From Spartobacteria bacterium (GTDB lineage: Bacteria > Verrucomicrobiota > Verrucomicrobiia > Chthoniobacterales > UBA6821): a DNA stretch of 64,000 nucleotides. The notes below the pieces were generated by a model. It saw only the letters and a list, made by a program, of their open reading frames with translations. It searched no databases and was not told the DNA's origin. Location of the stretch: positions 9,014-73,013 of the forward strand of contig CANIVT010000005.1 of NCBI GenBank assembly GCA_947471565.1, written 5' to 3'. Positions 14,545 through 48,025 of the stretch are shown here, one piece after another. How positions within the stretch are numbered: position 1 is the stretch's first letter; the number at the start of each line of letters is the position of its first letter. A program made the position numbers and the translations under genes.

Positions 14545-15284
14545 TCCTTGCCTGAACGCGTCCCGCGTGAACTTCCTCCCGAAGGGTCGATCACGAGCGT
14601 GACCTCTCCCCGGGGAGGATGATCCTGATAATAGGCCGAAAGGAGGCCCGGACTACCCTGCCGGTATTCCTCGTGGATCTTAGTCAACTCGCGGCATACC
14701 GAGAGAAGGGAATCGGGCATGATGACAGCCAGATCGGCAAGACAATCGCAGAGCCGGTGCGGTGACTCAAAGTAGACCGAGGTCATTCCAAGAGCAGCGG
14801 CTTTTTTGAGTTCATTCCGCCTTCCCGATCCGGAGGACGGGAGAAATCCACCGAAGAAAAACGGGACGGGAGGGAGTCCGCTCCCTGCAAGGGCCGTCGT
14901 CACCGCACTAGCACCCGGCAGGACAGTGTAGGCGATCCCCTCGGCGACGCAGGCCCTCACCAGGCGGAACCCGGGGTCGCTGACCGAGGGAGTTCCGGCA
15001 TCGGTGACAAGCACGAGTTTCTCCCCACCTCTCAGACGCGCGATCAGTTCCGGAAGACGCCTTTCCTCGTTGTGCTCGTGGAAGCTGACGAGAGGCTTGC
15101 GGGTTTCCAGATGAGCCAGCAAAAGCCCCGCGCGCCGGGTATCTTCGGCGATCACGCCGTCACAGTTTCTGAGAGCCTCAGCGGCCCGGAAGGTCAGATC
15201 CCCGAGGTTCCCGATCGGAGTGCAGAGAAGCGTTAGCGGCGGAAGCCCTTGCTCACTCTCCGGTTGCAGTCCTTCAGCCTTCAA
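14505..15284 (-). CDS. rsmI: 16S rRNA (cytidine1402-2'-O)-methyltransferase
   Basis: TPIGNLGDLTFRA N-terminal motif and a tetrapyrrole-methylase fold. The start is a TTG inside a heptamer repeat. The 3' end overlaps accA by 40 nt, convergently. Confidence 0.83.
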   Translation of the reverse strand: MKAEGLQPESEQGLPPLTLLCTPIGNLGDLTFRAAEALRNCDGVIAEDTRRAGLLLAHLETRKPLVSFHEHNEERRLPELIARLRGGEKLVLVTDAGTPSVSDPGFRLVRACVAEGIAYTVLPGASAVTTALAGSGLPPVPFFFGGFLPSSGSGRRNELKKAAALGMTSVYFESPHRLCDCLADLAVIMPDSLLSVCRELTKIHEEYRQGSPGLLSAYYQDHPPRGEVTLVIDPSGGSSRGTRSGKDHSEKTPIPRNLA

Positions 15285-15298
15285 CCTTAAGCCCTCAG
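15271..15298 (+). repeat. heptamer repeat cttcagc cttcaac cttaagc cctcagc
   Basis: Read directly. It spans the rsmI start and the rsmI/lptE-like intergenic gap. Confidence 0.8.
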
Positions 15299-15308
15299 CG
15301 TGTTCGGC

Positions 15309-27328: not shown

Positions 27329-27360
27329 GACTTTTCACCTTTCACTTTTCACCGTTTTCC
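27329..27360 (+). repeat. short-period repeat gacttttcac ctttcac ttttcac cgttttcc just upstream of the uvrB start
   Basis: Read directly. It ends 9 nt before the uvrB ATG. Confidence 0.8.
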
Positions 27361-27369
27361 TCCTCCCTC

Positions 27370-29517
27370 ATGTCCTTCAACCTCAGATCCGACTATACCC
27401 CGCAGGGTGATCAGGGGCAGGCCATTGAGAAGCTGACGCGCTCCATCGAGGCAGGCAACCGTCACCAGACACTCCTTGGAGTCACCGGCTCAGGGAAGAC
27501 CTTCACTGCGGCGAACATCATCCGGAATCTCGACCGGCCGGTGCTGATCATGTCGCACAACAAGACGCTGGCGGCCCAGCTCTACTCGGAATTCCGCCAG
27601 TTTTTCCCCGACAACGCCGTCGAGTACTTCGTCAGCTACTTCGACTACTACCAGCCGGAGGCCTACATCCCCCGCTCGGACACCTACATCGAGAAGGACA
27701 GCTCCATCAACGAGGAGATCGAGCGACTCCGCCTCTCCACCACCAGCTCTCTTCTCACCCGGCGCGATGTGATCGTGGTCTCGAGCGTCTCCTGCATCTA
27801 CGGCCTCGCCTCACCCGAGGACTTCTTGCAGATGGTGCTCAGCGTGAAACGCGGCCAGCGGATTACCCGTGAAGAGGTCCTCCGCACCATCGTCACGATG
27901 CTCTACGAGCGGAACGAGATCGAGTTCGGCCGGGGAAAATTCCGCGTTCGGGGTGATGTCGTGGAAATCTTCCCTGCCCAGAATGACGAGGAGGCCGTGC
28001 GCCTCGAGTTCTTCGGCGATGAGATCGACCGGATCACCCTCTTCGATCCCCTCACCGGCCATACTCGGGGAGAGTTGACGCACCTCACCCTCTTCCCGGC
28101 GAAGCAATTCGTGACACCCAAGGAGAAGATGCAGGTCGCCATGCGGAGCATTCGGGAGGAAATGGTCGAGCGCGTCGCTTGGTTCGAGGCGAACGGCAAA
28201 TACATCGAGGCGCAGCGGATCAAGATGCGCACCGAATATGACCTCGAGATGATGCAGGAGATGGGCTACTGCAACGGGATTGAGAACTACTCCCGCCACC
28301 TCACCGGCCGCGAGTCGGGATCACGGCCCTACACGCTCATGGACTTTCTTCCCGAGGACACCCTCCTGATCGTGGACGAGTCCCATGCGACCCTCCCGCA
28401 GGTGGGAGGGATGTATGCCGGCGACCGCGCGAGGAAGATGACCCTCGTCGAGTATGGATTCCGCCTACCGAGCGCCCTCGACAACCGGCCGCTGAACTTT
28501 TCCGAATTTACCGGAATGACGAAGCAGGGGCTCTATATCAGCGCGACGCCCGCCGATCTCGAGATCCTCAATAGCTACTCCGGAAACACCGGATTTCACC
28601 TTCTCGATGATCGCCTCCCCTCCCCGATCGATCCCAGGAGAGTGAAGCCTAATGCCGCAACCGAGGCGCTCGACATCACCGCACCCGGCACCCCTCTCAT
28701 CGTCGAGCAGATCATCAGGCCGACCGGCCTACTCGACCCCAGGATCGTCATCCGACCACTGAAGGGACAGGTCGACGAGACCATTGAACTCTGCCGACAG
28801 CGCGTCGAGCGGAACGAGCGCGTCCTCATCACGACCCTCACCAAACGGACCGCCGAGGACCTTACCGACTACCTCCGCGAGATCGGCCTAAAGGTCCGGT
28901 ACATCCACAGCGACGTGGACACGATCGAGCGCGTCGAGATCCTACGCTCCCTCCGTGCCGGGGAATGCGACATCCTCGTCGGCATCAACCTCCTCCGCGA
29001 GGGACTCGACCTCCCAGAGGTGAGTCTCGTCTGTGTGCTCGACGCGGATAAGGAAGGCTTCCTCCGCAGCCGCACCTCACTCATCCAGACGGCTGGCCGC
29101 GCCGCCCGCCACCTCCACGGCGAGGTCGTCCTCTTTGCCGACAAAATCACCGGAAGTATCCGTGACCTCCTTAACGTTACCGAGGACCGCCGCAGACGCC
29201 AGATGGAGCACAACCGCGAACACGGCATCACCCCGCGAAGCGTTGTTCGCCCAGTTCAAGAAAGCCTCCGCGTCCTCATCGAAGGGGATCAGGAGGAAAG
29301 TGCCCGCGTTCAGGAAGGCCCCGTCGACGTCGCCGCTCTCCTCAAGGAGCTCGAGGCTGAGATGAAAGACGCCTCCCGGAAGCTGGAGTACGAACGCGCC
29401 GCTCTCCTCCGTGACCAAATCATGGAGTTGAAGGGCGGCGGAGTGGTGACATCAGCCATGAACAACAGGACCAAAGACAAACCCCAAAAGGGCAAAAAAG
29501 GGTGGAAGAAACGCTAA
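27370..29517 (+). CDS. uvrB: excinuclease ABC subunit B
   Basis: GVTGSGKTF Walker A, helicase motifs, and a C-terminal UVR domain (YERAALLRDQIMELK). Confidence 0.96.
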   Translation: MSFNLRSDYTPQGDQGQAIEKLTRSIEAGNRHQTLLGVTGSGKTFTAANIIRNLDRPVLIMSHNKTLAAQLYSEFRQFFPDNAVEYFVSYFDYYQPEAYIPRSDTYIEKDSSINEEIERLRLSTTSSLLTRRDVIVVSSVSCIYGLASPEDFLQMVLSVKRGQRITREEVLRTIVTMLYERNEIEFGRGKFRVRGDVVEIFPAQNDEEAVRLEFFGDEIDRITLFDPLTGHTRGELTHLTLFPAKQFVTPKEKMQVAMRSIREEMVERVAWFEANGKYIEAQRIKMRTEYDLEMMQEMGYCNGIENYSRHLTGRESGSRPYTLMDFLPEDTLLIVDESHATLPQVGGMYAGDRARKMTLVEYGFRLPSALDNRPLNFSEFTGMTKQGLYISATPADLEILNSYSGNTGFHLLDDRLPSPIDPRRVKPNAATEALDITAPGTPLIVEQIIRPTGLLDPRIVIRPLKGQVDETIELCRQRVERNERVLITTLTKRTAEDLTDYLREIGLKVRYIHSDVDTIERVEILRSLRAGECDILVGINLLREGLDLPEVSLVCVLDADKEGFLRSRTSLIQTAGRAARHLHGEVVLFADKITGSIRDLLNVTEDRRRRQMEHNREHGITPRSVVRPVQESLRVLIEGDQEESARVQEGPVDVAALLKELEAEMKDASRKLEYERAALLRDQIMELKGGGVVTSAMNNRTKDKPQKGKKGWKKR

Positions 29518-29523
29518 ATTTCT

Positions 29524-29560
29524 CCCTTCAGCCTTCCTCCTTCAACCTTTAGCCTTTTCC
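29524..29560 (+). repeat. heptamer repeat cccttcagcc ttcctcc ttcaacc tttagcc ttttcc just upstream of the holA start
   Basis: Read directly. It ends 2 nt before the holA ATG. Confidence 0.8.
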
Positions 29561-29562
29561 CG

Positions 29563-30714
29563 ATGGCCACCCGCAAAGCCCCCGCCGCCGAGAAGATCCC
29601 GCGTCTTCATTTCGTGACGGGGAGCGATGAGGCCGAGGTCCGCATGGCGGCCAAGGATCTGGCTGCAAAGCTCGCCCCTCCCGATGCAGGGGAGTTCGGC
29701 ATGGAGACCATCGAGCTCCCGGCCGATACGGTCGACTGCGCGGTTGAGATGATCAATCAGACGATCGGGGCGATCCGTACTCTCCCCTTCTTCGGCGGCA
29801 AGCTTGTCTGGATGAAAGGGGTCACCTTCCTGAAGGACTCGGTGCAAGGCCGTTCCGAAACCGTCCAGGAGGCTCTGGAAAAGTTCCTTGGGGCCCTCCG
29901 CGAGGGTCTGCCCGATGGCATCACCCTCCTCATCAGCGCCCCGGAACCCGATAAACGACGCGGCTTCTATAAATCGCTGTGCGAGGCGGCTGACACCGTG
30001 ATCAAGGACAAGATCGAGATCGGCGGCTTCGGCGGCCACTCCGAGGATGACCTGATTGATTGGGTGGCAGACCGCTGCCGTGAGCGCGGCGTGAAGATCG
30101 ATCGTCGCGCCGCCGAGGTGCTGGCGGGTCGCATCGGAGCCAACAGCGGGCAACTCCAAGGCGAGATTCAGAAGCTCGCCACCGCCGCCGGTGAGGGTGC
30201 CACGGTCACTGAGCAGCTTGTACGTGATCTCGTCCCGGTCACCCGTGCCGGAGGGATCTTTGACCTGAGTGACGCGATCAACCGACGCAACCTCCCCCTC
30301 TGTCTCGACACCCTATCGCAACTCCTCCGCCAGGGAGAGAATGCCGTCGGGATCCTGCTGGCCGCCATCGTGCCGACAGTCAGGAATCTCCTTGTGGCCA
30401 AGGACCTCATGGAGCGTTACAAACTCAAGCCCCCGGCCCAGCCGCAGTTCTTCGCCTCCGAGCTACGCAAGCTCCGCGCCGAGGACACGGCCCACCTCCC
30501 CCGCAAGAAGGACGGTACGATCAACACCTACGGGATCGGACTCGCCGCCTCCAACGCGGCCCGGTTCGGCCTGGAGCATCTCGAAAAAGCCTTTCTGGCG
30601 TGCCGCGATGCCAATCGCAAGCTCTTGAGCGGACATGGCTCCGAGCAGACGATTCTGACGGAACTGATCGTCCGGATCGTGGCCAAACCGGAAGGGGCAA
30701 AACAAGCACTCTGA
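29563..30714 (+). CDS. holA: DNA polymerase III subunit delta
   Basis: The size (383 aa) and layout are HolA-like. There are no sharp motifs, so the call rests on overall resemblance. Confidence 0.75.
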   Translation: MATRKAPAAEKIPRLHFVTGSDEAEVRMAAKDLAAKLAPPDAGEFGMETIELPADTVDCAVEMINQTIGAIRTLPFFGGKLVWMKGVTFLKDSVQGRSETVQEALEKFLGALREGLPDGITLLISAPEPDKRRGFYKSLCEAADTVIKDKIEIGGFGGHSEDDLIDWVADRCRERGVKIDRRAAEVLAGRIGANSGQLQGEIQKLATAAGEGATVTEQLVRDLVPVTRAGGIFDLSDAINRRNLPLCLDTLSQLLRQGENAVGILLAAIVPTVRNLLVAKDLMERYKLKPPAQPQFFASELRKLRAEDTAHLPRKKDGTINTYGIGLAASNAARFGLEHLEKAFLACRDANRKLLSGHGSEQTILTELIVRIVAKPEGAKQAL

Positions 30715-30809
30715 GCGTTCGGATGACTCGCGCAGAGGCTCGGAGATCGCGGATGAAAAAAGACTCAAGAATCCCAAGGAGATAGGTTTTGCTGTTTTTG
30801 GGAATTTTT

Positions 30810-30833
30810 CCTGAATTCCTGAATTCCTGATTC
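30810..30833 (+). repeat. 8-bp tandem repeat cctgaatt x2 plus a degenerate copy cctgattc
   Basis: Read directly. Confidence 0.85.
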
Positions 30834-30841
30834 ATCCCCCC

Positions 30842-30911
30842 CTCTGCGCCTCTGCGCCTCCGCGCGAGAATGCCTCCCTCAGCTCCTCCTCTGCGTCTTG
30901 GCGCGAGAATT
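30842..30911 (+). repeat. cargo-less copies of the GxxExxY-cassette terminal repeat
   Basis: 30842-30872 (ctctgcgcctctgcgcctccgcgcgagaatg) matches the reverse complement of 46488-46518 at 29/31 positions. A degenerate second copy at 30884-30911 ends in the same gcgcgagaat. Confidence 0.75.
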
Positions 30912-30961
30912 CTTCCGGGTTGTTCATGGACAGGCGGGAAAATCGGGAGGAAACTGAATCC

Positions 30962-31171
30962 ATGAGTGCACACACCTACAAACTGATCGAACTCGTCGGA
31001 TCCTCTCCCCTGAGCATTGAGGATGCCGTACAGAATGCGTTGGCCGAGGCGGCCCTTTCCGAAAAGAACCTCCGTTGGCTTGAAATCGTCGAGACGCGCG
31101 CCCATCTTGAGGAGGGCAAGATCGCTCACTGGCAGGTGACCGTGAAGATTGGCGCCACAATCGGAAACTGA
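30962..31171 (+). CDS. dodecin-family flavin-binding protein
   Basis: 69 aa. TYKLIELVGSSPLSIEDAVQNAL...WLEIVETRAHLEEGKIAHWQVTVKIG follows the dodecin pattern. The ATG at 30962 is preferred. Confidence 0.8.
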   Translation: MSAHTYKLIELVGSSPLSIEDAVQNALAEAALSEKNLRWLEIVETRAHLEEGKIAHWQVTVKIGATIGN

Positions 31172-31324
31172 TCTCATCGTCGCCGTGCAAGCCAGACTAT
31201 CCTTGGATCCGGAGGCTCTGGGAACTCTACGACACGGCCCGCTATCTGTATGCAGGCCAGGCAGGATGTCTCCGTTCCGAGAACGCGGAGATGAGGGCCT
31301 CCCGTTGGGCATCTGACCACGCGC

Positions 31325-33001
31325 ATGTCGAAAAATCTCCCTTTTCCGAGAGTGTGCGCCCTGGCGGCGGCTCTCCTGATTATAGGCATCCACGCGGCTC
31401 CCGCCACGGAGACGGCACCCAGCCTGACCACGCTGGACCGGAAGGTTCCCGACTGGCTCACGAAGGCGGTCTTTTACCAGATCTACCCGCAGAGCTTTTA
31501 CGACAGTAACGGTGACGGCATCGGCGACCTCCCCGGCATCACCTCCAAGCTGGATTACATCAAGTCCCTCGGAGTCACCGCCGTCTGGCTCAACCCCATC
31601 TACGACTCCCCCTTCGGCGACGCCGGTTACGATGTGAGAGACTACCTCAAGATCGCGCCGCGCTACGGTACCAACGAGGATGCGAAGAAGCTGTTTCAGG
31701 AGGCGCACCGCCGCGGCATCCGCGTGGTGCTGGACCTCGTCGCGGGGCACACCTCGCGGGAGCATGCTTGGTTCAAGGATTCTAGCGCCTCCGCCTCCGG
31801 AAAACATGCCGACTGGTACATCTGGTCGGACGACCCCAAGTGGGTGAAGAGTCCCGGTGCCAGGGCCGGCTTCTACTACAAAAATTACTTCGATTTCCAA
31901 CCCGCGCTGAACTATGGGTTTGCCCATCCCGATCCCCTCAAGCCTTGGGAGAAACCGTCCGATTCCCGGGAATGCACGGAGGTCCGAGAGGAGATGCGTG
32001 CCATCATGCGCTACTGGCTTGATCTTGGGTGCGACGGCTTCCGGGTGGACATGGCCAGCTCACTTATCAAGGGTGACAACAAAGACGACGAGCTCAGGGC
32101 CCTGTGGCAGAATTACCGTTCCTGGCTCAACGAGCATTACCCTCAGGCCGTCCTGATCTCGGAATGGAGCGAGCCCTCGCAGGCGATCCCGGACGGATTC
32201 GACGTCGATTTTCTGATCCATTTCCACAACCCGGCCTACCGCTACCTCCTGCAACCGATGCTACAGAGCAACGCCCCCAACACCTCTTTCTTCAGCACCA
32301 ACGGTGCGGGCAACATCAAGGCGTTCACCGATCAATTCGTGCCCCAGTACGAACGCACCAAGAACCTCGGCTTCATCTCCCTTCCTACGGGAAATCACGA
32401 CTTCAGCCGCCCCCGCTTCATGGGCCGTGAGATTCCCGACCTGAAAGTGGTCTACTCAATGCTGCTGACCATGCCGGGCGTCCCCTTTATCTACTACGGC
32501 GACGAGATCGGAATGCGAAACCTCAAGGGCTGGCCCGACAAGGAAGGCGCCGTGTGGCGCGGATCCTGCCGCTCGCCGATGCAGTGGTCTCCCGATCCGA
32601 AGGCCGGCTTCTCCACAGCCGATACCAACAGCTTCTACCTGCCGCTGGACCCCGATCCCCGGCGACCGAACGTCGCGACCGAGGAGACCGACCCCGACTC
32701 GCTGCTCAATTTCGTGCGCACCCTGATCAACCTGCGCTCCAAGGAACTTTCGCTCGGGAATCTCGGCGGCTTCTCCGTGCTCTACGCGGAGGCCAACAAA
32801 TACCCGTTCGTCTATCTCCGCTCCGGGGGCCCCGATGACTTCGTGGTCGCCCTGAATCCGGGCAATCAGGCGGTGTCATGGAGCGACCCGAGGATGGTCG
32901 ATGCCCGCACAGAAATATCCCGCAACGCCACGCTCAAGGGGCAGAAGATCAGCCTCGGGCCGGCCTCCTTCGGGATCTACCGCCTCCTCAAGACGCCATG
33001 A
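31325..33001 (+). CDS. secreted GH13 alpha-amylase-family glycoside hydrolase (alpha-glucosidase / oligo-1,6-glucosidase-like)
   Basis: Signal peptide, then AVFYQIYPQSFYDSNGDGIGDLPGI..LDYIKSLGVTAVWLNPIY, followed by GFRVDMA. Confidence 0.9.
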   Translation: MSKNLPFPRVCALAAALLIIGIHAAPATETAPSLTTLDRKVPDWLTKAVFYQIYPQSFYDSNGDGIGDLPGITSKLDYIKSLGVTAVWLNPIYDSPFGDAGYDVRDYLKIAPRYGTNEDAKKLFQEAHRRGIRVVLDLVAGHTSREHAWFKDSSASASGKHADWYIWSDDPKWVKSPGARAGFYYKNYFDFQPALNYGFAHPDPLKPWEKPSDSRECTEVREEMRAIMRYWLDLGCDGFRVDMASSLIKGDNKDDELRALWQNYRSWLNEHYPQAVLISEWSEPSQAIPDGFDVDFLIHFHNPAYRYLLQPMLQSNAPNTSFFSTNGAGNIKAFTDQFVPQYERTKNLGFISLPTGNHDFSRPRFMGREIPDLKVVYSMLLTMPGVPFIYYGDEIGMRNLKGWPDKEGAVWRGSCRSPMQWSPDPKAGFSTADTNSFYLPLDPDPRRPNVATEETDPDSLLNFVRTLINLRSKELSLGNLGGFSVLYAEANKYPFVYLRSGGPDDFVVALNPGNQAVSWSDPRMVDARTEISRNATLKGQKISLGPASFGIYRLLKTP

Positions 33002-37331: not shown

Positions 37332-37409
37332 GACTGAAGGCTGTTAGGCTATTGGGAGCTGAAGGACTGAAGCCGGACGGGGATTTCCCCGGCCTAACAG
37401 TCTTCAGCC
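37332..37409. repeat. inverted repeat containing cttcag heptamers between the aminotransferase gene and ileS
   Basis: gactgaaggctgttaggc (37332-37349) matches the reverse complement of gcctaacagtcttcagcc (37392-37409) at 16/18 positions. Confidence 0.7.
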
Positions 37410-37424
37410 TTCAGCCTAAAAACC

Positions 37425-38585: not shown

Positions 38586-38702
38586 GTTAGAAAGGTTGAA
38601 GAGTTAAAAAGTGGCCATCCACCCTTTTAACCCTTTTAACCCTTTTAACCCTTTTAACCCTTTTAACCCTTTTAACCCTTTTAACCCTTTTAACCCTTCA
38701 AC
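38586..38702. repeat. 9-bp tandem array (cccttttaa x8 perfect plus 1 degenerate) preceded by three inverted degenerate units
   Basis: Perfect copies at 38622-38693 and a degenerate copy at 38694-38702. Inverted units gttagaaag gttgaagag ttaaaaagt lie at 38586-38612. The centre is ccat at 38615-38618. Confidence 0.9.
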
Positions 38703-44022: not shown

Positions 44023-44038
44023 CGGCGGAAAAATGCAG

Positions 44039-44120
44039 AATGAAAAATGAAAAATGAAAAAACAGAATCTCCAAGGAACACTTCTCCTTCATTTCCTGTT
44101 TTCCTGATTTTTTGATTCAT
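44039..44120. repeat. heptamer arrays in inverted arrangement (aatgaaa x3 ... tttcctg ttttcctg attttttg attcat)
   Basis: Read directly. It fills the gap between the aldo/keto reductase stop and the uvrA start. Confidence 0.75.
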
Positions 44121-45314: not shown

Positions 45315-46414
45315 GGAAGTCGTCGGAGAAGGGTGACCGATTCTATTTCCGCCGTCTGGGGAAACATGTCGAGGGGAGTCACTTTTTCGGCACGATACGT
45401 TTCGGAAAGCCGCTTCAGATCGCGTGCCAGCGTTGCCGGATTACACGAAACATAAACGATACGCGAAGGAGGATTGCCGAGAATCGCATGGGTGGCCGCC
45501 TCTTCTAGCCCCTCGGAGGGAGGGTCCAGCAGGAGGACTGTCCCGTCAGATTCGCCCGCTTCGAGCGCCTCGGAGAGGCGGTCCTCGACATTCCCGGCGA
45601 GATACTCCTCGTTCTCCGCGGCCTGGCGCGCGGCCATGGCCACCGAGGCGATCGAACGCTCGATGCCGATCACCTTGGTGAACGATCCCTGCAGTTCATG
45701 GGCAAAGAAACCCGCACCGCAGTAGGCATCCACAAGGAGTGCACGGATCGCATCGCCGGAAAGGACCGCGTGGGAGACCGTTTTCTTGAGGATCTCCGCC
45801 ACGGCGTTGTTCACCTGCCGAAAACCGCCGAAGCGTTTTTTCTCACCGATCAGGTAATCCCCATCGCGGGGACGGGACTTGAGCAGATCCTTGAACCCGA
45901 GATCCACCTCGGACGAGGCGATCAGACACTTCTCCACGGGAACCACCCTGTTCGAGCCGGCCGCATAGAAGCCGGCCCTTCCTTCCCGGACATGAACCGT
46001 AATTCGGTTGCGGTACCCGTAGGGCTCCGGGGAAGGAATCATCTCCTCCACGGGAGGCTCGGCCATTCCTCCAAGACGGCGCTGGGCCTCGCGGAGCTGG
46101 GTCCGCTTGATCCGGAGTTGATGATCGTAGGCAATGTGTTGGTAGGCGCAGCCGCCGCAACTCAGAAAGACAGGACAGGGGGAGGCAATCCGATGAGGGG
46201 AAGGCACGATGACTTCCAGTAGATCGGCCTCCAGAAGACGAGACTTCACCTTGCGGACCCGGACGCGAACCTTCTCCCCGTCGATCACCCCCGCCACAAA
46301 ACAAGCCATTCCGTCGACACGACCGACCCCCTTCCCGCCGAAGGCGATGTCATGGATATCAAGCTCCAGTTCCTGACCTGGACGGATGGTGACTGAGGAA
46401 TCGGACTTGGACAT
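45311..46414 (-). CDS. RlmD/RumA-family 23S rRNA (uracil-C5)-methyltransferase
   Basis: TRAM-like N-terminus (FGGKGVGRVDG), Fe-S Cys cluster (CPVFLSCGGCAYQH), and a SAM-MTase C-terminal region (DPPSEGL, YVSCNPATLARD). The ATG at 46414 is preferred. Confidence 0.85.
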   Translation of the reverse strand: MSKSDSSVTIRPGQELELDIHDIAFGGKGVGRVDGMACFVAGVIDGEKVRVRVRKVKSRLLEADLLEVIVPSPHRIASPCPVFLSCGGCAYQHIAYDHQLRIKRTQLREAQRRLGGMAEPPVEEMIPSPEPYGYRNRITVHVREGRAGFYAAGSNRVVPVEKCLIASSEVDLGFKDLLKSRPRDGDYLIGEKKRFGGFRQVNNAVAEILKKTVSHAVLSGDAIRALLVDAYCGAGFFAHELQGSFTKVIGIERSIASVAMAARQAAENEEYLAGNVEDRLSEALEAGESDGTVLLLDPPSEGLEEAATHAILGNPPSRIVYVSCNPATLARDLKRLSETYRAEKVTPLDMFPQTAEIESVTLLRRLP

Positions 46415-46487
46415 TCCGTAAGCCTCGACGGACGGGGCGGAGCCGCGCAAAACAAAAACGCCATCACGGTCAATTCCTGCATAAAAT

Positions 46488-46947
46488 GATTCTCGCGCGG
46501 AGGCGCGGAGGCGCAGAGATTAGAGATGGAATGAAGGAAAACGACATCGGAACAAAGATTCTGAGTGCTGCTATTGCTGTTCATCGGGAACTGGGCCCCG
46601 GTCTCCTTGAAAGCGTTTACGAGGTGGTTTTGGCCCGTGAATTGTCGGATGCAGGATTACGGGTGGAACGTCAGGTCCCCATATCGATCTCCTACAAAGG
46701 TCTTCAATTTGAAGAGGGATTCCGTGCTGACCTAATCGTCGAGCAGAAAGTTTTGCTCGAACTCAAATCCGTGGAGCAAATCGCAGCATCTCACAAGAAG
46801 CAGATACAGACCTATTTGAGTTTGAGCGGCCTCAAGCTTGGTTGCCTCCTGAATTTCGGAGATGCCGTTCTGAAAAACGGAATTACTCGTTGCGTGAACG
46901 GACTTCAGGAAAATTTCTCCGCGCCTCCGCGTCTCCGCGCGAAAATC
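46488..46947. mobile_element. candidate TIR-bounded cassette carrying a GxxExxY gene
   Basis: 31-bp arms at 46488-46518 and 46917-46947 are inverted and match at 28/31 positions. A single small ORF lies between them. A cargo-less near-identical arm sits at 30842-30872. No transposase or target-site duplication was seen. Confidence 0.5.
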
Positions 46948-46968
46948 TCTCGGAGTAACTTTACCTGA
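46531..46968 (+). CDS. GxxExxY protein (PD-(D/E)XK nuclease-like superfamily)
   Basis: GPGLLESVY contains the G-x-x-E-x-x-Y signature, followed by FRADLIVEQKVLLELKSVEQ (a D..E-x-K-like core). The ATG at 46531 is preferred over the track start, which reads through the left repeat. The C-terminal tail reads through the right repeat. Confidence 0.85.
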   Translation: MKENDIGTKILSAAIAVHRELGPGLLESVYEVVLARELSDAGLRVERQVPISISYKGLQFEEGFRADLIVEQKVLLELKSVEQIAASHKKQIQTYLSLSGLKLGCLLNFGDAVLKNGITRCVNGLQENFSAPPRLRAKISRSNFT

Positions 46969-46969
46969 C

Positions 46970-48025
46970 ATGGCTTCCCGCAAAAGCTACGACGAGCGCT
47001 TCATGAGGATCGCCCTTACCGAGGCGGCAAAGGGTCTCGATCGCACCACCCCGAACCCCGCTGTAGGTGCGGTTTTGGTTAAGGAGGGCCGTGTTCTCTC
47101 AAAAGGTTATCACCATGCCGCCGGCCTCCCCCATGCCGAGATCGAGGCCATCAGAAAATTGCTCCCTGAGTTTCGCCTTCAGTCTTCAGCCTTCAGTCTT
47201 CAGCCTCACCCGCTTGAGGGCTACACCCTCTACGTGACGCTGGAACCTTGCTCCTCACACGGCAGGACCCCTCCCTGCACGGAAGCGATCATCGCCGCGG
47301 GAATCACACGAGTGGTCTACGGGGCCACCGATCCCGACGAGCGTCACCTGGGGAAAGGAGCCAGAATCCTCCGCAAGGCCGGAATCGAGGTCGTCGACGG
47401 GGTGCTTGCCGACCAATGCAAGGCCTTGAACACGCATTGGAATCACCGCACCGCCTCGGGTATGCCATGGGTGATCGCCAAAGCGGGTCTGTCGCTTGAT
47501 GGCCGAATCGACTCCCCTCCTCACAGGCGCTGGATTACCTCGGTGGCGAGCCGTCGGGAGGCCATGAAACTGCGGGCCTCGGTGGAGGCCATTCTTGTCG
47601 GTGGCGGCACCGTCTGCACCGACGATCCCTCACTCACTGTGAGGGGCATTAAGCTTCCAAAGGGACACTCCCAGCCATGGCGGGTCGTCTGGTCCAAGAG
47701 CGGCAAAGTCCCAAAAAACTGCAAGCTGCTCACCGATGCTCACCGTGACCGCACGATCATCCTGAAAGGAATGTCTCTTCGCGCCGCGCTCAAGGAACTG
47801 GCACACCGGGGCATCTCCAGCGTTCTCATCGAGGGTGGCGGCCAGACTCACGCAGAAGCCTTCAAAGGGAAACTTGTCGACGAGGTCCGCTTCTTCATCG
47901 CACCCGTCATCCAGGGCGGGAAAGTTCCGGTCGTCAGCGGCCAGATCCCCCCGTCCCGACTCAATGACGTGACCTGCAAAAAAATCGGCTCTGACCTGAT
48001 GATCTCGGGACTGGTCAGGAAGTGA
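46970..48025 (+). CDS. ribD: bifunctional riboflavin biosynthesis deaminase/reductase
   Basis: PHAEIEAI and TLEPCSSHGRTPPC deaminase motifs plus a C-terminal reductase domain. Contains an in-frame repeat-derived insert; see the findings. Confidence 0.92.
   Translation: MASRKSYDERFMRIALTEAAKGLDRTTPNPAVGAVLVKEGRVLSKGYHHAAGLPHAEIEAIRKLLPEFRLQSSAFSLQPHPLEGYTLYVTLEPCSSHGRTPPCTEAIIAAGITRVVYGATDPDERHLGKGARILRKAGIEVVDGVLADQCKALNTHWNHRTASGMPWVIAKAGLSLDGRIDSPPHRRWITSVASRREAMKLRASVEAILVGGGTVCTDDPSLTVRGIKLPKGHSQPWRVVWSKSGKVPKNCKLLTDAHRDRTIILKGMSLRAALKELAHRGISSVLIEGGGQTHAEAFKGKLVDEVRFFIAPVIQGGKVPVVSGQIPPSRLNDVTCKKIGSDLMISGLVRK
47176..47205 (+). repeat. heptamer repeat (cttcagt cttcagc) x2 inside the ribD coding sequence
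   Basis: Read directly. It translates in frame as RLQSSAFSLQP. Confidence 0.9.

Follow-up and report, generated by a model that had tools for sequence, protein, structure and literature searches.

How does the terminal repeat of a gene-carrying cassette come to stand, without the gene, between two ordinary genes? This question is raised by the spacer between holA and the dodecin gene of a Spartobacteria bacterium. At this locus the window, by which we mean the whole 64,000-nt stretch of DNA that was analysed, has the gene order uvrB (27370–29517), holA (29563–30714), a 247-nt spacer, dodecin (30962–31171) and an alpha-amylase gene. An initial annotation had seen in the spacer a near-copy of the arm of a GxxExxY cassette 15.6 kb away, and had offered three origins for it: a footprint or solo terminal inverted repeat, a MITE-like derivative, or a recombination target. 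The MITE-like origin fits best, and the picture of solo direct repeats gives way to a complete hairpin with an extra arm. We conclude that positions 30727–30911 are probably a gene-less, non-autonomous REPIN/MITE-like derivative of the GxxExxY-cassette family. The spacer and its borders are made up of the following parts:

30712–30714: holA stop codon; the degenerate left arm starts 12 nt downstream
30727–30753, no strand assigned: degenerate left (inverted) arm, CTCGCGCAGAGGCTCGGAGATCGCGGA, pairing with 30843–30868 in the minimum-free-energy and centroid folds
30754–30841, no strand assigned: A+T-rich hairpin loop of 88 nt, about 60% identical to the loop of locus L136
30808–30833, plus strand: 8-bp microsatellite (TTCCTGAA/CCTGAATT, about 3 units), inside the loop
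30842–30872, plus strand: right arm copy 1, octamers CTCTGCGC CTCTGCGC CTCCGCGC followed by GAGAAT, with 2 of 31 mismatches against the cassette left arm
30873–30911, plus strand: decayed extra right arm copy 2, CCTCCCTC AGCTCCTC CTCTGCGT CTTGGCGC GAGAAT, abutting copy 1 and having no partner
30925–30961, plus strand: conserved dodecin leader (CATGGACAGRCG...), outside the element and also found ahead of dodecin in relatives L155, L157 and L159

Read from holA onwards, the left arm of the spacer is followed by the 88-nt loop with its microsatellite, then by the right arm and its extra copy, and last by about 40 nt of dodecin leader. The arms of the window consist of three tandem octamers (CTCYGCGC) with GAGAAT or GAAAAT at the end. 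By the general form of the family, two to four CTYYGCGY octamers plus GARAAT in inverted orientation, the spacer element is a member, and a regular expression for the octamer array matches only GxxExxY-type elements within the 64-kb window. As had been noticed, copy 1 matches the reverse complement of 46488–46518 with 2 mismatches in 31 positions over a distance of 15,617 nt, a match that none of 100 shuffles produced. It is also 100% identical over 30 nt to the arms of a Verrucomicrobiae MAG (L082) and a Desulfatiglandales MAG (L086). The degenerate second copy in the same orientation was borne out as well: positions 30881–30915 are 74% identical to copy 1 in register, the octamer reading starts directly after copy 1, and the regular expression picks up 30889–30904 within it. 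Its end, GCGCGAGAAT at 30901–30910, is not significant as a 10-mer alone (9 hits at up to 1 mismatch, 7.5 expected). Tandem direct arms were seen again at other loci. Tandem Repeats Finder recovered the microsatellite upstream of copy 1 at 30808–30830, with period 8, 2.9 copies and 100% matches, and L010, L019 and L136 have a (TTTCCTGA)n run in the equivalent place, 10–25 nt inside a right arm.

The initial annotation had argued from two direct copies instead of an inverted pair, having overlooked the left arm at 30727–30753. This arm can be aligned with the other four arms and pairs with copy 1 over a stem of about 23 bp, so the argument from direct copies fails. Folded as RNA, the 153 nt at 30722–30874 reach -57.3 kcal/mol (z = -3.7), and none of 200 shuffles was as stable; the DNA fold of the spacer hairpin gave z = -2.3. 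The copy is cargo-less, as first described, and its arms belong to the element found around the GxxExxY gene: the 88-nt loop holds no ORF and has no similarity to the GxxExxY gene, and the element is not gene-carrying. Nor did the loop significantly resemble the interior of the cassette, and an origin of the spacer copy by internal deletion is therefore unsupported. In a blastn-short search of the loop against all fetched loci, the microsatellite was the sole match; against the loop of L136, a Spartobacteria element, the roughly 60% identity corresponds to z = 4.4. Finally, the spacer is only partly repeat-derived, where the whole of it had been thought so, since its last ~40 nt are the ordinary dodecin leader (30925–30961), conserved in relatives that do not have the element.

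The gene-carrying counterpart lies further downstream in the window, between rlmD (minus strand, to 46450) and ribD (from 46970):

46463–46969, plus strand: gene-carrying cassette, an insert of 507 nt between rlmD and ribD, where relatives L244 and L245 have only GG
46488–46519, minus strand: cassette left arm, subterminal, 25 nt inside the left end of the insert
46528–46968, plus strand: GxxExxY (PD-(D/E)XK) gene (TIGR04256, E = 1.6e-40; PF13366, E = 3.4e-40), its domain ending near 46893
46916–46951, plus strand: cassette right arm, 91% complementary to the left arm, its GAAAAT tail 23 nt from the right end of the insert

Relatives L242 and L243 (RibD identity 98% and 89%) carry the cassette, and it is absent from L244 and L245 (80% and 79%), where the empty site reads ...GCAAAACAAAAAGG directly before the ribD ATG. 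The 507 nt of the window replace GG there with clean edges, and no target-site duplication was found in this one filled-versus-empty comparison. Inverted repeats, as in a MITE, are present, in a gene-carrying cassette that has no duplication and whose arms lie 23–25 nt inside its ends. The cassette ORF runs through the right arm, and its TGA stands 1 nt before the ribD ATG (TGAcATG; window 46940–46972). Sphingomonas parapaucimobilis has the same read-through arrangement between fabD and fabG; in L246 (1560–1616) the GxxExxY ORF stops as TAAgcATG before fabG, with GGAGG preceding. A read-through stop 1–2 nt before the next ATG suggests translational coupling that keeps an essential downstream gene expressed. 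Between the window and L243, identity is 98.6% in the cassette, 90.3% in ribD and 94.1% in rlmD. Along the alignment it goes from 98–100% across the cassette to 68% in ribD nt 31–130 (window 47000–47099) and then to 92–98%; this drop marks an abrupt recombination boundary right behind the cassette. The ribD coding sequence also contains a heptamer tandem repeat (CTTCAGY, about 4 units; window 47175–47206), whose translation, ...EFRLQSSAFSLQPHPLEG..., adds 13 residues to the deaminase domain; L243 and L244 have this insertion and L245 does not.

The spacer element itself is an insertion specific to this lineage, lying after the holA stop codon and ahead of the conserved dodecin leader. Contigs with identical holA had an identical spacer in all 9 examined, and the element is missing in all relatives examined with holA at 85–98% identity. 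At 85% holA identity, a relative has holA, 7 nt and then dodecin; at 92–97%, relatives have other genes at the site; at 98%, L159 has a different hairpin in the same place, with homology to the window resuming at the GAAT tail. No clean empty site for the spacer copy occurred among the relatives examined, and none of them had a GxxExxY gene at the holA–dodecin locus. The expectation that related strains might hold a small ORF between the two copies was accordingly not borne out, the relatives having no element, other genes or the different hairpin.

The L159 hairpin (2532–2660) has arms of CTTTATCCC-type units ending in TGTGAAT. It belongs to a second hairpin family with the same architecture and other units (left arm ATTCACAGGGATAAA; right arm (CTTYATCCC)n plus TGTGAGT or TGTGAAT), copies of which lie at 1899–1998 of the window and in the L159 holA–dodecin spacer, where the window has its GAGAAT-type element. 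The region after holA (window 30715–33001 compared with L155–L159) is a rearrangement hot spot in this lineage: after holA, these relatives have inserted ATE_C, HEAT-repeat or unknown genes, or dodecin is missing. The alpha-amylase gene between dodecin and DUF5069 was found only in the window's lineage among the relatives compared.

Arms of this type are widespread. A 22-nt search pattern with four degenerate positions, CTCYGCGYCTCYGCGCGARAAT, matched 24 stretches in a viral collection and at least 120 in species-representative contigs (one genome per species), where by our own arithmetic about 1 would be expected by chance. Hosts among the matches listed include Verrucomicrobia, Planctomycetes, Kiritimatiellae, Lentisphaerae, Acidobacteria, alpha-, gamma- and delta-proteobacteria, Nitrospirota, Bacteroidota, Caldithrix, Chloroflexi and others. 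Among the listed matches with enough flank, an inverted partner was present on the inner side of 60 of 107 arms (56%), compared with 5 of 105 for the outer-side control. Loops among the matches listed are mostly 6–200 nt long and cluster at 70–110 nt, with a small group of 384–406 nt that carries GxxExxY genes. From this pairing and these loop lengths, the gene-less hairpin is the common, majority form among the matches listed. The hairpins sit between ordinary genes, such as lexA, DUF72 and a Y-family polymerase gene (dinB) in L120. Crude greedy ORF calls gave 26 gene ends and 25 gene starts as outer neighbours among the matches listed, without orientation bias; where a gene end adjoins, the element begins 0–35 nt past its stop codon.

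Hairpin loops within a genome are homologous (83%, z = 16.5, in L120; 76% in L035; 93%, in inverted orientation, between L052 and L134; 67% in Sphingomonas silueang). On these sequence comparisons, whole hairpins, arms and loop together, appear to multiply as units. Larger loops with unrelated ORFs occur in L146 and L097. No recurrent second cargo was found in the arm-selected loci, and nothing consistent stood beside solo arms. Several viral, phage-like contigs (L011, L014, L016, L023, L024, L027, L029 and L030) have a solo arm adjoining four GTCGAGR heptamers. On one side of it is a small gene ending in ...REYRENWDxIF, on the other a terminase-like gene, and the arm, read on its reverse strand, supplies the tail of the protein.

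The arms are closely tied to GxxExxY genes. A jackhmmer search over all ORFs of the arm-selected loci listed found 5 full-length GxxExxY genes, all at arms and 4 of them between inverted arms; the gene in L123 lies between two whole hairpins, and decayed GxxExxY remnants lie within the loops of L049 and L153. For the reverse test, we took 80 metagenome loci selected by nothing but the presence of a GxxExxY relative (51–72% identity) and counted as evaluable those with at least 200 nt on each side. An octamer array was adjacent at 52 of the 61 evaluable genes, 21 of the 61 having the plain order of left arm, gene and right arm (L-G-R). Most of these loci have inverted octamer arrays on both sides of the gene. 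Their units vary (GCGCAGAG, GCGCAAAG, GCGCCAAG, ACACAAAG) and keep a CNNAGNCR pattern, with ends such as TCTCGCG or TCTCACG. Some genes stand between two whole hairpins that point the same way (LR-G-LR), as in L123, and 3 of 61 have the order LR-G-R, which is the L-R-R order of the spacer plus a gene. Arm type co-varies with similarity of the GxxExxY protein (64.4% within an arm class versus 61.0% between classes; 0 of 2000 permutations). The outcome that the initial annotation had named as fatal to its reading, a REP-like motif with no preference for GxxExxY genes, is not what these counts describe: the motif is widespread and mostly gene-less, yet strongly associated with this one family, both in the arm-selected loci listed (5 of 5) and around independently sampled genes.

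Individual cassettes have histories of their own. In L123 (6300–7200), an Acidobacteria MAG, the direct hairpins come with a ~60-nt duplication of the 3′ end of the upstream gene, whose second copy is a 23-codon mini-ORF overlapping the start of the next gene; possible explanations are a long target duplication, recombination or an artefact of assembly. Four Sphingomonadales genomes (L073, L093, L099 and L246) have a GxxExxY cassette directly upstream of fabG in the fabD-fabG-acpP region. Divergence there is somewhat greater in the cassette (50–68%) than in FabD/FabG (70–81%), and the case looks like long vertical retention in an essential operon, not frequent movement. Since the cassette upstream of fabG is common to all four genomes, some cassette copies are old and stable. 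GxxExxY genes were found in 7 of 72,556 plasmid records and in none of 50,697 phage genomes.

The closest named relatives of the GxxExxY protein are from Verrucomicrobia (Chthoniobacterales and Verrucomicrobiales), and the family (PF13366) is very large, with 7,965 of 8,000 candidates scoring at E <= 1e-10. Across 32 relatives, the catalytic D and the E-x-K of the PD-(D/E)XK motif are conserved, as is the E of GxxExxY. The AlphaFold model is confident (pLDDT 87.7). Compared with solved structures it comes closest, each time by a weak match, to Cas4 SSO0001, lambda exonuclease and the AdnAB nuclease domain; PADLOC and PHROGs returned only weak Cas4-like matches. Judged by the conserved residues and the predicted model, the nuclease looks active. 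The family has been listed as of unknown function, with 'multiple transfers' (PMC3424549). We found no report of nuclease activity or transposition for any GxxExxY protein in the searchable literature, and searches there for GxxExxY, PDDEXK_3, intervening-sequence proteins and PDDEXK with hairpin or mobile elements returned no description of these repeats.

Several standard identities were tried for the element. No Rfam family matched the window at gathering scores, and matches in 30600–31000 at E up to 10 were at chance level. No terminator-like sites occurred in 30600–31050 or 46350–47050, the stem being followed by GAGAAUGCC with no U-tract. Read as a -10 box, the GAGAAT of the arm was no better placed: a sigma-70-only scan for -35 and -10 hexamers 16–18 nt apart gave 0 promoter-like sites in the same two regions, and the arms show no bias towards gene starts. 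As for integron attC sites, the outer ends have the consensus GARAAW and a pyrimidine-rich flank, with no GTTRRRY, and the hairpin arrays separate ordinary genes, not cassettes.

Could the hairpins serve the host instead of themselves? They might be intercistronic RNA stem-loops, or DNA structures bound by host proteins, at which GxxExxY genes settle as safe landing sites; on this view the spacer would contain a functional hairpin between holA and dodecin and not a decayed or non-autonomous mobile element. We regard this as unlikely, though it has an appeal in where the elements lie: at gene boundaries within operons (lexA/DUF72/dinB in L120, fabD-fabG in Sphingomonas, holA-dodecin here) and close behind stop codons where a gene end adjoins. 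Gene-less hairpins far outnumber occupied ones among the matches listed, the type-B loci, in which the gene has a complete hairpin on either side, have the look of insertions at a hairpin that was already there, and one relative has a different hairpin at the identical site. Yet neighbours show no preferred orientation, neither a U-tract terminator nor a sigma-70 promoter was found in the scans, and close relatives manage without the element. Mismatches between paired arms fall into G-U and A-C classes at 23 versus 17 (p = 0.43), with many transversions, so that pairing in the sense RNA is not visibly selected. Near-identical 30-nt arms across phyla are also hard to square with convergent host function, and arm type tracks the GxxExxY protein. 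An operator or leader shared by flavin-related genes is a highly improbable explanation, suggested by GARAAT-ended arms ahead of the start codons of dodecin (at 51 nt) and ribD (at 23 nt): the dodecin and ribD genes of relatives have no arm upstream, the same arms stand beside unrelated genes in many phyla, and neither an FMN riboswitch nor any other Rfam match was found.

Another account keeps the cassette and drops the movement of gene-less copies. An LR-G-R cassette would have stood in the spacer and lost its GxxExxY gene from between copies 1 and 2, leaving L-loop-R-R′, a unit that never moved without its gene. LR-G-R does occur in nature (the 3 of 61 cassettes above), GxxExxY genes are decaying inside arms in L049 and L153, and the reverse strand of the loop (GGAATTCAGGAAAAATT) has a marginal match to the 3′ coding end of the cassette (GGACTTCAGGAAAATTT), with a score equal to the best of 300 shuffles. 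We nevertheless consider this history quite improbable: there is no GxxExxY remnant between or near the copies, copy 2 starting 1 nt after copy 1, and no relative examined has a GxxExxY gene at the locus. The resemblance of the loop to the gene-less L136 loop is better accommodated by spread as a gene-less unit.

Under the reading that we prefer, a gene-less derivative of the cassette family, whole hairpins would be copied, arms and loop together, into further intergenic positions at gene boundaries; the agent would probably be the GxxExxY nuclease, acting in trans on a hairpin or cruciform formed by the arms. The extra right arm may have arisen by local duplication of an arm, or may be the remnant of a neighbouring or nested copy. 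The spacer element is most likely transcribed within the holA-dodecin message, where its G+C-rich stem of ~23 bp could act as a 3′ stabiliser or processing site, like E. coli REP.

More tentatively, GxxExxY genes and octamer-array arms may together form undescribed, cross-phylum mobile cassettes of ~0.5 kb. In these, a PD-(D/E)XK nuclease of ~125 aa would fill the role of a RAYT, with the gene-less hairpins as non-autonomous progeny. Insertion would take place without target duplication at gene boundaries inside operons, and the ORF stop 1–2 nt before the next start would preserve downstream expression. Against mobility stand the lack of a target duplication and the subterminal arms, both unlike classical MITEs (in one filled/empty pair), as well as the rarity of GxxExxY genes on plasmids, their absence from phages and the vertical pattern in Sphingomonadales.

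The GxxExxY family gains a concrete, testable hypothesis, that of a structure-specific nuclease tied to a hairpin element. Its basis is that GxxExxY genes almost always lie between octamer-array inverted repeats, that gene-less hairpins are abundant in many phyla, and that both forms vary between close relatives. The arm family also accounts for a class of intergenic repeats that annotation pipelines at present pass over or render as unusual protein tails.

Several known systems resemble parts of this picture. Intervening sequences of 23S rRNA may carry a small ORF, such as S23p in Coxiella (PMC4990558). They share with our elements a long stem around nothing (about 100 nt) or around a small ORF (about 400 nt) within a host transcript, but their ORF family is different, and we rejected this identity because no rRNA similarity was present in the window or in the 144 arm-selected loci listed. 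The REP/BIME elements of E. coli are G+C-rich intercistronic stem-loops of operons with a role as 3′ stabilisers of mRNA. A G+C-rich hairpin between operon cistrons is common to both, and by this analogy a stabilising role is plausible here; sequence, arm architecture and associated gene all differ.

Cyanobacterial STRR heptamer repeats are short (7–9 nt), tandem and intergenic. In this they are like the spacer microsatellite and many other intergenic short tandem repeats of the window, which belong to another organism, have other units and in some cases are built into hairpin arms. Many intergenic regions of the window have pyrimidine-rich tandem repeats of 7–9 nt on the coding strand just upstream of start codons:

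27333–27353, 29525–29559, 37398–37417, 38621–38698, 44028–44061, 44091–44110 and 15271–15299, coding strand: pyrimidine-rich repeats

Their units include TTTCACC before uvrB, CCTTCAG before holA and ileS, ACCCTTTTA in 8.7 copies, and TTTTTCA; the position of the repeat upstream of holA is kept in relatives, as CCTTCAT units.

MITEs such as the Correia elements of Neisseria are 100–200 bp long, have inverted-repeat ends, lie in intergenic regions, often inside transcription units, and differ in presence and absence between strains. Size, inverted-repeat ends, intergenic position and presence or absence between strains are all shared with our element. Unlike Correia elements and MITEs, the present family has no target-site duplication (in one clean filled/empty pair) and subterminal arms, its loops are wholly different between lineages, and it has no recognised transposase.

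The closest known analogue is the system of REPINs and RAYT transposases (Bertels & Rainey 2011, PMC3116915). As in REPINs, two inverted units separated by a short spacer form a hairpin (z = -3.7 at holA–dodecin; 60 of 107 arms paired among the matches listed), the copies are extragenic, dispersed and multi-copy, and the doublet behaves as the replicating unit, whole hairpins with homologous loops recurring within a genome. As with REPINs and RAYTs, the enzyme that may do the mobilising is encoded by a small gene with inverted copies of the repeat on either side. The arms, on the other hand, are tandem octamer arrays without internal dyad symmetry, not the small palindromes of REP and REPIN units, and are nearly identical across phyla where REPINs are species-specific. 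The flanked gene encodes a PD-(D/E)XK (GxxExxY) protein of ~125 aa and not an HUH/Y1 RAYT, and GxxExxY genes are multi-copy and widely scattered, unlike RAYT genes, which are typically single-copy. If the GxxExxY nuclease does mobilise the hairpins, the two together would constitute another REPIN-like system besides the known one, with an unrelated enzyme, and would be among the smallest autonomous mobile units known.
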